Shown here in pieces: positions 25,453-50,845 of a stretch of DNA of 64,000 nucleotides. This DNA is from Escherichia coli. GTDB taxonomy: Bacteria > Pseudomonadota > Gammaproteobacteria > Enterobacterales > Enterobacteriaceae. The DNA lies in NCBI RefSeq assembly GCF_003334405.1, contig NZ_QOWM01000006.1; one strand, 5' to 3'. The position numbers and the translations under genes were made by a program. The first letter of the stretch is position 1. Each line of letters opens with the position of its first letter. The notes below the pieces were generated by a model. The model made no database searches and was not told where the DNA came from. It saw nothing but the letters and a program-made list of their open reading frames with translations.

Positions 25453-25480
25453 TCTGGCGGAGCCTGGGAGCTCCGCCAGA
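25453..25480. terminator. Bidirectional terminator-like hairpin between convergent yacL and speD
   Basis: tctggcggagc ... gctccgccaga perfect 11-bp stem. Confidence 0.55.
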
Positions 25481-46157: not shown

Positions 46158-46898
46158 TTACAGCCTGGCATTACCTTCAATTGCGCCACCAAAGTCATTA
46201 ATGGCGTAAAAATGCACTTTTGCAGAATTCGCTTTGCCATTAAGGCCATTGACTTTCATGACCTCATCACTAAATGGTGCAATCATTTTCACATCAATCG
46301 GATAGCGTTTACCGCTAGCTTCTAAATCACCACTGCTAAAAGAGACGTAGTAAGGGGTTGGATTGGTCACTCGTAATGACGCCTTACCTTCTGAACCTGA
46401 CCAGAACCACTTCAGGGCTAACGGGGCTTCAGAGGGATTTCCCTTCAATCCATCCGGGCGATAGAAAAGTTTTATACGTGTGCGAAATGCCAGTTGCAGC
46501 AGGCTTTGATTCGCGACCTTTTCTGCATCTGGTTTTGGTGGAACTTCCAGTACGTTAAACCAGAACACGCTCTCTCTGTCTTTAGGCAGTGAGGTGCTGG
46601 CTGTGTACATTAATTTGATTGTTTGCCCACGTTTGGCATCAATACGCGATACTGGCGGCGTAGCAGTAAAAGGGACTGTAATACTGCCAGGCTCAGCGTT
46701 GTCATCGCCAGTATCTAACCAACTCTGGACAAGCAACGGGTTATTCCCTTTATTTTCCAGACGTACGTTGACACTTTTTTGATCGCTTTTATATATTACG
46801 CGAGTACCCGAAATGACAATGTCCGCAATAGACGATGAACTAAAAGCCATACAGGTTACGAAGCATAAAGCTGTTGTATGTTTGGTGTTAAAAAACAT
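46158..46898 (-). CDS. yadV: Periplasmic fimbrial chaperone (PapD-like)
   Basis: 246-aa ORF with signal peptide and PapD-fold sequence; also known as EcpD. Confidence 0.9.
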   Translation of the reverse strand: MFFNTKHTTALCFVTCMAFSSSSIADIVISGTRVIYKSDQKSVNVRLENKGNNPLLVQSWLDTGDDNAEPGSITVPFTATPPVSRIDAKRGQTIKLMYTASTSLPKDRESVFWFNVLEVPPKPDAEKVANQSLLQLAFRTRIKLFYRPDGLKGNPSEAPLALKWFWSGSEGKASLRVTNPTPYYVSFSSGDLEASGKRYPIDVKMIAPFSDEVMKVNGLNGKANSAKVHFYAINDFGGAIEGNARL

Positions 46899-46926
46899 AA
46901 ACCATCCCTGATAGAGTTAATTAAAA

Positions 46927-46962
46927 CAGGGAATAATATAAAATAGAAATTATTATTCCCTG
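46927..46962 (-). other. Stem-loop between the major pilin gene yadN and chaperone gene yadV
   Basis: cagggaataat - 14-nt loop - attattccctg, perfect 11-bp stem in an otherwise AT-rich spacer. Confidence 0.5.
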
Positions 46963-46995
46963 TATATTCATTCAATCAATTTAACTGGTGAATAC

Positions 46996-47580
46996 TTACT
47001 GATAAGTAATGGTGTATGCAGTGTTAGTTTTTACATAACCAGCAGTTGCTGTTTGGTCTGCGACGGCACGAACGTAAGACGCTTTAAAATCATAAACAGC
47101 AGATTTTGTCGTTGCATCCAGGGCTTTAGTATACACATCGCCAGGGTTGTTAATTTGAACCTGTTTGATAGTGGAACCATCAATATTGTGTAGAGCGATA
47201 TTAACGCCGTCAGATGGGTTGTTAATAGACATGTCGTTGTTCAAAGTCCCTTTGCTGTTACCAAAGAAAACAGAACCGAAGGTCATTTTAGCCGTGCTAC
47301 CTGGATTCGGATTTGCTTTGCTGCAGTCAACGGTGATGCTGAAAGGTTTAGCTTTAGCGCCAACGGTGTCATTCAGTACGCCAGCATCGATTTCACCAAC
47401 GGTTGCGGTTTGCAGCAGGATCAGACCATCCTTGTTACCGCCGTCAACGCGGGTTTCACAGGTGTTATCAACAACCAGACCACTGATATTTAACTGACCG
47501 CCGTCCATATCAGCAGAAGCAGTACCTGCAACCATCGCCAGCATAAGACCAGACAGGGCAAAACCTAATTTTTTAGACAT
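46996..47580 (-). CDS. yadN: Fimbrial major subunit
   Basis: 194-aa ORF with signal peptide; first gene of the operon; pilin C-terminal motif (..YTITYQ). Confidence 0.9.
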
Positions 47581-47949
47581 AAAAATCCTTTAATAAAATT
47601 CCATTAGTCAGACTACATGTTTGAAGAATGACTATTCATGACACAAATAGGAGAAACAAATGTTAGATATTAATGAGCAATGATATTTGTTACCCAAATT
47701 TACAACCATTGTTCATTAGGTCGCCTATTGTGCACTTTAGAAGCTTTTGAACAAATTAAATTTACTTAATTCAAAATTAAGTAAAAATAAGTTCACAAGT
47801 GCAATTGGTTAGGGTATGGAGATGGGATTGATATTTATTTATAGGAAGTTATATTATTTCCGCAAAGAGATGTTTAAACTAAAATCGTAATTAAGGAAAG
47901 AGATGAGATATGATTTTCAGAAAATATTTATATTCGCAATATAAATAAA

Positions 47950-50779: not shown

Positions 50780-50845
50780 CTCTTTGAACAAAAAATAAGG
50801 CGGGAGCATTTCCCGCCTGTGGTAAACGTGATGGAACGGCTGTAA

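Follow-up and report, generated by a model that had tools for sequence, protein, structure and literature searches.

The assembly of fimbriae requires hundreds of major subunits per usher and tip adhesin, and the yad locus of Escherichia coli raises the question of how an operon whose first gene encodes the major pilin could provide such an excess, and what part the inverted repeat located between this gene, yadN, and the chaperone gene yadV may have in it. The repeat was analyzed within a stretch of 64,000 nucleotides (the window) that consists of E. coli K-12 DNA, with 100% identity to K-12 strains; MG1655 coordinates are obtained by adding 109303 to those of the window. In the order of transcription, the elements of interest are:

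47580-46996, minus strand: yadN, with which the operon begins; it encodes the major pilin, a StaA-like fimbrial protein (stop codon at 46996-46998).
46995-46964, minus strand: weak hairpin, rich in A+U (GUAUUCA...UGAAUAU), that follows the yadN stop and precedes the main hairpin.
46963-46926, minus strand: core stem-loop, with a 13-bp perfect stem and a 12-nt loop, made up of the 5' arm (46963-46951), the loop AUUUCUAUUUUA (46950-46939) and the 3' arm (46938-46926).
46926-46917, minus strand: U-rich tail UUUUAAUUAA directly 3' of the stem, where release of the transcript would be expected from a terminator.
46909-46905, minus strand: AGGGA, the Shine-Dalgarno sequence of yadV, outside the hairpin and left free.
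46898-46158, minus strand: yadV (ecpD), encoding the periplasmic chaperone (start codon at 46896-46898; match to the fimbrial-chaperone equivalog NF007398 with 472 bits, cutoff 285).
46123-43526, minus strand: htrE, after which yadM, yadL, yadK and yadC follow in this order.

The original prediction had placed a perfect 11-bp stem-loop in a 97-bp spacer after yadN. The letters of the repeat given there are exact (cagggaataat at 46927-46937 and attattccctg at 46952-46962), the spacer (46899-46995) measured 97 nt again, and the pairing is indeed perfect, but the length of the stem had been understated, since one more base pairs at each end to give 13 bp. The folding energy, a calculation proposed at the time as a check, is -15.1 kcal/mol for the core hairpin as minus-strand RNA. 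This RNA reads ACAGGGAAUAAUA-AUUUCUAUUUUA-UAUUAUUCCCUGU, followed by UUUAAUUAAC; neither the transcribed strand nor the tail had been named in the original prediction. The stem is G+C-rich at its foot (CAGGG/CCCUG) and composed exclusively of A-U pairs in its upper part, while a run of four U abuts the foot on the transcribed strand, the first of them (46926) being able to close the stem as well; after these four proximal U the tail continues with mixed A and U (AAUUAA). The hairpin begins 32 nt past the yadN stop codon and ends 27 nt ahead of the yadV start codon, so that it lies, together with the U run, on the coding strand and clear of both the terminating ribosome and the yadV ribosome-binding site. 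As for the weak upstream hairpin, its AUUCA/UGAAU stem is seen again in homologous alleles.

The spacer folds with a z-score of -3.4, and none of 200 shuffled versions folded as well. When the A+T-rich spacer was shuffled 5000 times with its dinucleotides preserved, a perfect stem of 13 bp or more arose 3 times and one of 11 bp or more 17 times; for the whole 64-kb window, two perfect hairpins of at least 13 bp were counted against 0.0 in 100 Markov simulations. A hairpin lacking any function was kept only as a lesser rival explanation. Across 3233 E. coli genomes, the yadN hairpin has a single location in each and is never annotated, and no further perfect copies of the hairpin arm were detected in the window. 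With one copy per genome, a dispersed intergenic repeat (REP/BIME, ERIC) or a mobile element was rejected as its identity. The search for an Rfam family gave no match, only chance microRNA-like matches to the palindrome being returned with a permissive E-value, and there is no Rfam family for the fim locus either.

Some other inverted repeats of the window deserve mention in their own right. The spacer between yadC and panB has a hairpin at 40372-40408 on the minus strand (13 bp perfect, 16 bp when folded, -28 kcal/mol), followed by the tail GAUAAAUCAU, without a U run; presumably it is the terminator that closes the yad operon. The folK-yadN regulatory region (369 nt) contains A+T-rich perfect palindromes at 47761-47785 (11 bp, 3-nt loop) and at 47925-47947 (10 bp, 3-nt loop), the latter directly after the folK stop codon, and a perfect 10-bp hairpin, CCTGTCCAGC-AATG-GCTGGACAGG, is found within the yadK coding sequence (42206-42229).

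In our opinion, the yadN hairpin probably works as a leaky Rho-independent terminator inside the operon and, at the same time, as a cap that protects the RNA at its 3' end. Transcription would begin upstream of yadN on the minus strand and, 32 nt past the stop codon of this gene, the RNA would fold into the 13-bp stem-loop with UUUU coming next; part of the polymerases would be released there, giving rise to a short monocistronic yadN mRNA whose terminal hairpin would shield it from 3'-to-5' exonucleases. The remaining polymerases would read on to produce the yadV-htrE-yadMLKC message, and any of these longer transcripts that were cleaved farther downstream would likewise be shortened as far as the hairpin. 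The overall result would be an excess of major-pilin mRNA over the mRNA for chaperone, usher and minor subunits. The simplest route to pilin excess from a single promoter is a leaky terminator or a stabiliser placed behind the pilin gene. In this proposal the structure of the element, its strand, position and conservation and the generality of the arrangement are shown, whereas termination, stabilisation and the influence on stoichiometry are inferred.

Rho-independent terminators typically have loops of 3-8 nt and, in the classical form, U tracts of 6-8 residues. The yadN element is a stable stem-loop with a G+C-rich foot, located 3' of a stop codon on the transcribed strand, and the position of this foot beside UUUU would fit termination. 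The loop, with 12 nt, exceeds the typical range, and the U tract, with four proximal U that are kept in homologous alleles, is weaker than the classical one. A consensus terminator scan (loop 3-8 nt) did not report the site because the 12-nt loop is beyond its 8-nt limit. A low termination efficiency is predicted from the lack of G-C pairs in the upper stem, the size of the loop and the shortness of the U run; a terminator at this place would have to be leaky in any case, since the downstream genes of the operon are needed.

Published expression data offer several points of contact with this proposal. The MG1655 Term-seq tables (Adams et al.) list no 3' ends in the yad operon; as H-NS keeps this operon silent in the laboratory media used, nothing can be concluded from their absence. 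Elsewhere in the window, with the offset of 109303, the published 3' ends map to 25448 (speD, 5 nt past a perfect hairpin at 25453-25480), 32670 (can), 32700 (hpt) and 36972 (panD), and there is a very strong one at 50794, inside gluQ and downstream of dksA. Read-through past the yadN hairpin must occur, because an hns mutant shows increased expression of all the yad genes (PMC13245861) and the K-12 yad operon gives rise to functional fimbriae when put behind a foreign promoter. In ExPEC, qRT-PCR revealed unequal induction of the yad genes, interpreted by the authors as differential regulation within the locus (PMC13245861). Treatment with the Rho inhibitor bicyclomycin was reported to induce a set of fimbrial genes that are mostly the first, major-pilin genes of their operons, namely sfmA, yfcV, yadN and elfA (PMC10980228), a list that fits, as anecdotal evidence, a drop in transcript after the first gene. 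These pilin genes belong to operons with post-pilin hairpins.

In EHEC, RT-PCR divided yad into three transcriptional units and yeh into one, with the breakpoints given only in a figure (PMC11287998), and the yad pilin gene of EHEC is followed by an allele with a canonical terminator (L009). The unit counts, three for yad with its hairpin and one for yeh without any, agree with the model, as a comparison of two operons. If leaky termination were confirmed for yad, it would explain both the unequal behavior of genes within the locus and the existence of several transcription units in EHEC.

The three units reported for EHEC yad could also speak for a role of the palindrome at the DNA level, as a site for a dimeric regulator or a nucleoid protein or as part of an internal yadV promoter, and the repeat is in fact a perfect palindrome in A+T-rich, H-NS-silenced DNA, overlapped by a weak promoter-like match (TTGATT-16-AATAAT, 46979-46952, minus strand). 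However, promoter-like matches in the region occur at the level expected by chance (19 found versus 19.3 expected), and the palindrome is present nowhere else in the genome. In other alleles and species, moreover, the stems found at this position are unrelated in sequence, as would suit an RNA structure but not a site that a protein recognizes by its sequence. We regard a function of this kind as highly improbable.

The unrelated stems became apparent when yad alleles and related loci were compared. The yad locus is present in about 5200 of 5426 complete E. coli genomes, in several allele classes. In every class, and in most of the related loci examined, the major pilin gene is immediately followed by a hairpin of -11 to -18 kcal/mol; the genes upstream of the hairpin in the related loci are fimbrial subunits. 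Classes L001-L007 and L011, which have the K-12 stem, keep its basal part, and their indels are located in the apical loop, which in K-12 is 7 nt shorter than in B1-type strains; B1- and B2-type alleles have extra apical pairs that result in a smaller effective loop. The tail UUUUAAUUAA is retained in the K-12, B1-type, B2-type, L007 and L011 alleles, and is UUUUUUU in L003. Upon alignment of nine homologous alleles, 92% of the stem cells can pair, versus 40-56% if the partners are slid, and two-sided changes are found at three pairs: C-G to U-A at the foot (L011), and A-U to G-C and U-A to C-G (both in L007). One compensatory pair (36-80) is spurious in L007, where it is made by a gap introduced by MAFFT, and was counted for L011 only. 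With only nine sequences, covariation in this homologous family is suggestive but did not reach significance when columns were shuffled (29-102 of 500).

Beyond the homologous family, unrelated stems, all of them between -11 and -18 kcal/mol, are located at the same position in alleles L008, L009 and L010 and at the same place in YadV loci of Escherichia sp. E1V33, E. albertii, E. whittamii, Pseudocitrobacter, Citrobacter, Superficieibacter, Pantoea and others. Many of the stems in non-homologous alleles and orthologous loci are followed by canonical U tracts, as in AUAAGGUUUGCC-N4-GGCAAACCUUAU-UUUU. Identity in the spacer is 69-78%, versus 78-88% in the flanking genes; since the spacer diverges faster than its neighbors and stems are replaced, what is conserved is a structure at a position, and not a sequence. 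The chaperone-usher spacers of the related loci, once correctly delimited, measure 20-56 nt and are unstructured; apparently longer ones in L011, L013, L014, L015 and L025 were left out, as ATG-first calling had mis-set the usher starts.

Three individual loci are of interest by themselves. In strain Z1323HEC0423 (L006, 699-806) a U-to-C change breaks one stem pair (A.C), and the chaperone gene of the same genome is frameshifted; both changes may reflect the decay of an inactive operon. Strain 3PT (L039, NZ_CM137004.1) has an IS1 element in place of yadN and the distal half of the hairpin, and constitutes a natural deletion variant in which yadV-htrE is left without a pilin gene. Finally, a 670-bp contig labelled Terrisporobacter mayombei (L012, NZ_JAHZMP010000039.1) encodes the N-terminal 176 residues of YadV with 100% identity to E. 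coli, and is almost certainly an assembly contamination.

The comparison of alleles is also informative with respect to a possible translational switch, in which the 3' arm of the hairpin (UUCCCUG) would pair with the Shine-Dalgarno region of yadV (CAGGGA), so that the ribosome-binding site would become masked whenever the 5' arm is missing. Six complementary nucleotides exist in K-12, and in L003 a change of the Shine-Dalgarno region to CAGGAA coincides with a change of the 3' arm to UUCCUG. This single coincident change is what the reading is based on, however, and other alleles retain only 4-5 complementary nucleotides, the non-homologous ones none; any purine-rich Shine-Dalgarno sequence would be complementary to the 3' arm, and a 6-bp pairing would be strongly outcompeted by the 13-bp hairpin. 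Among the alternatives to which we assigned a probability, we consider this the least credible.

The survey also covered eight of the chaperone-usher operons present in MG1655 (yad, fim, sfm, elf, ybg, yfc, yra and yeh). In seven of them, all but yeh, no spacer of the operon is longer than the one that follows the first pilin gene (59-219 nt), and it harbors a hairpin of -12 to -23 kcal/mol, the sole strong intra-operon one; this includes yad, where the hairpin after yadN is the only strong one inside the operon. All other intra-operon spacers of the eight operons have 66 nt or less and hairpins no stronger than -8.7 kcal/mol. The yeh operon is the only one of the eight without a post-pilin hairpin, the yehD-yehC spacer of MG1655 (L036) having 34 nt. 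The idea in the original prediction that other chaperone-usher operons share this architecture was borne out in seven of the eight K-12 operons examined as well as across yad alleles, and the architecture is clearly under selection. The functions it put forward as alternatives, stabilisation of the upstream segment or attenuation, are supported for yadN by this comparative evidence, as putative roles. The design is nearly universal in the chaperone-usher operons of K-12 and survives a complete turnover of the stem sequence, a tidy generalisation that involves no new principle.

A closer competitor of the leaky terminator is a purely protective 3' hairpin without termination, by which the whole operon would be transcribed as one RNA with a long-lived yadN segment: RNase E would cut the A+U-rich single-stranded stretch downstream (UUUUAAUUAACUCUAUC) and exonucleases would halt at the hairpin, as at malE-malF or at the 3' end of fimA. 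The mechanism is common in E. coli operons, and at yad a stable structure is located precisely at the 3' boundary of the cistron that is due to be the most abundant. Across loci, hairpin and energy (-11 to -18 kcal/mol) are conserved and the U tract is not, as evidenced by the counterparts of fimA, elfA, L008, L018 and L020, which have no proximal U tract; selection may therefore act on the hairpin and not on termination. In addition, the 3' end of fimA lies at the foot of a hairpin that has no U tract, and the ends of the small RNA FimR2, derived from that site, are made by RNase E. On the other hand, a U run is present directly 3' of the stem in K-12 and most yad alleles, where it is retained, and it reappears after unrelated stems. 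This counts against protection alone, because blocking exonucleases does not require a U run. We consider pure protection rather unlikely, bearing in mind that termination and protection are not mutually exclusive and lead to the same physiological outcome.

Whether it acts through leaky termination, as we favor, or otherwise, the yadN hairpin has a counterpart within the same organism, in the spacer that follows the first, major pilin gene of the fim operon. The hairpin of the fimA-fimI spacer (L032 2675-2709; MG1655 4543674-4543708) is annotated in RefSeq as the small RNA FimR2, and a primary Term-seq 3' end of fimA in MG1655, at 4543708, coincides with the 3' foot of this hairpin. FimR2 has been described as a 35-nt 3' UTR fragment that is processed by RNase E and binds CsrA (PMC9723502); that the fim counterpart gives rise to a regulatory RNA had escaped the original prediction. 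The yadN 3' UTR with its hairpin (about 46917-46995, minus strand) could accordingly be released as a stable trans-acting small RNA, a counterpart of FimR2 that would couple Yad expression to other pathways. Its location in the spacer after the major pilin gene, equal to that of FimR2 in MG1655, and the generality of post-pilin hairpins point in this direction. However, the two elements differ in most other respects. The FimR2 hairpin is short and G+C-rich (GGGC-AGGGAU-GCCC), with a loop GGA that binds CsrA and without a U tract, whereas that of yadN has 38 nt, is A+U-rich and is followed by UUUU, and neither homology nor similarity in sequence or structure to FimR2 was found, in line with the lack of a match in Rfam. 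The yadN loop, AUUUCUAUUUUA, contains no GGA, and the sole GGA of the hairpin is paired in the stem; with this motif buried, CsrA binding at the yadN hairpin was set aside. Unlike a small RNA bearing a seed, the spacer evolves faster than the flanking genes and has been swapped wholesale between alleles, and its U tail is short for Hfq binding. A FimR2-like role is very unlikely, if somewhat less so than a site acting at the DNA level; it would belong to a wider scenario in which regulatory RNAs commonly derive from the 3' UTRs that hold the post-pilin hairpins of chaperone-usher operons, FimR2 being the first example known, and in which a Yad-specific small RNA would signal fimbrial expression to other pathways. 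As a separate observation, the CsrA-binding loop of FimR2 contains CAGGGAUG, and an identical 8-mer makes up the Shine-Dalgarno region of yadV (46903-46910, minus strand), where it is not conserved in other yad alleles. This 8-mer also fits the core of the CsrA SELEX consensus.

A leaky terminator with a protective function would be of relevance for engineering or quantifying the expression of Yad, which has now been linked to ExPEC bloodstream infection. The element also invites comparison with canonical Rho-independent terminators, which it resembles in having a G+C-rich foot with U residues following at once, after a stop codon; it departs from them in the 12-nt loop instead of one of 3-8 nt, the A-U-only upper stem, the four U followed by AAUUAA and its location internal to an operon. 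The element between malE and malF is another intergenic stem-loop after a 5'-most cistron. It follows the most highly expressed cistron and blocks PNPase and RNase II after cleavage downstream. The malE-malF element is a REP repeat with many copies; the yadN hairpin, in contrast, is single-copy and has a U run.

The nearest precedents in fimbrial operons are pap, coding for the P pilus, and others such as cfaAB, which like yad have a stem-loop directly after the major pilin cistron. An RNase-resistant terminator structure has been described at the 3' end of papA, just as a 3' hairpin protects malE (PMC5927463), and in operons of the pap/cfaAB type the pilin mRNA segment is stable and abundant, with the assembly genes expressed at lower levels from the same promoter (PMC5927463; PMC4546395). 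There are differences with respect to pap, where the pilin gene is the second, after papB, while yadN is the first gene of yad; a 5' RNase E cut and a 5' hairpin also contribute to the outcome in pap, and the stem sequences of both systems are unrelated. The hairpin after yadN is previously undescribed in the literature searched, and it is of a kind that has long been known.
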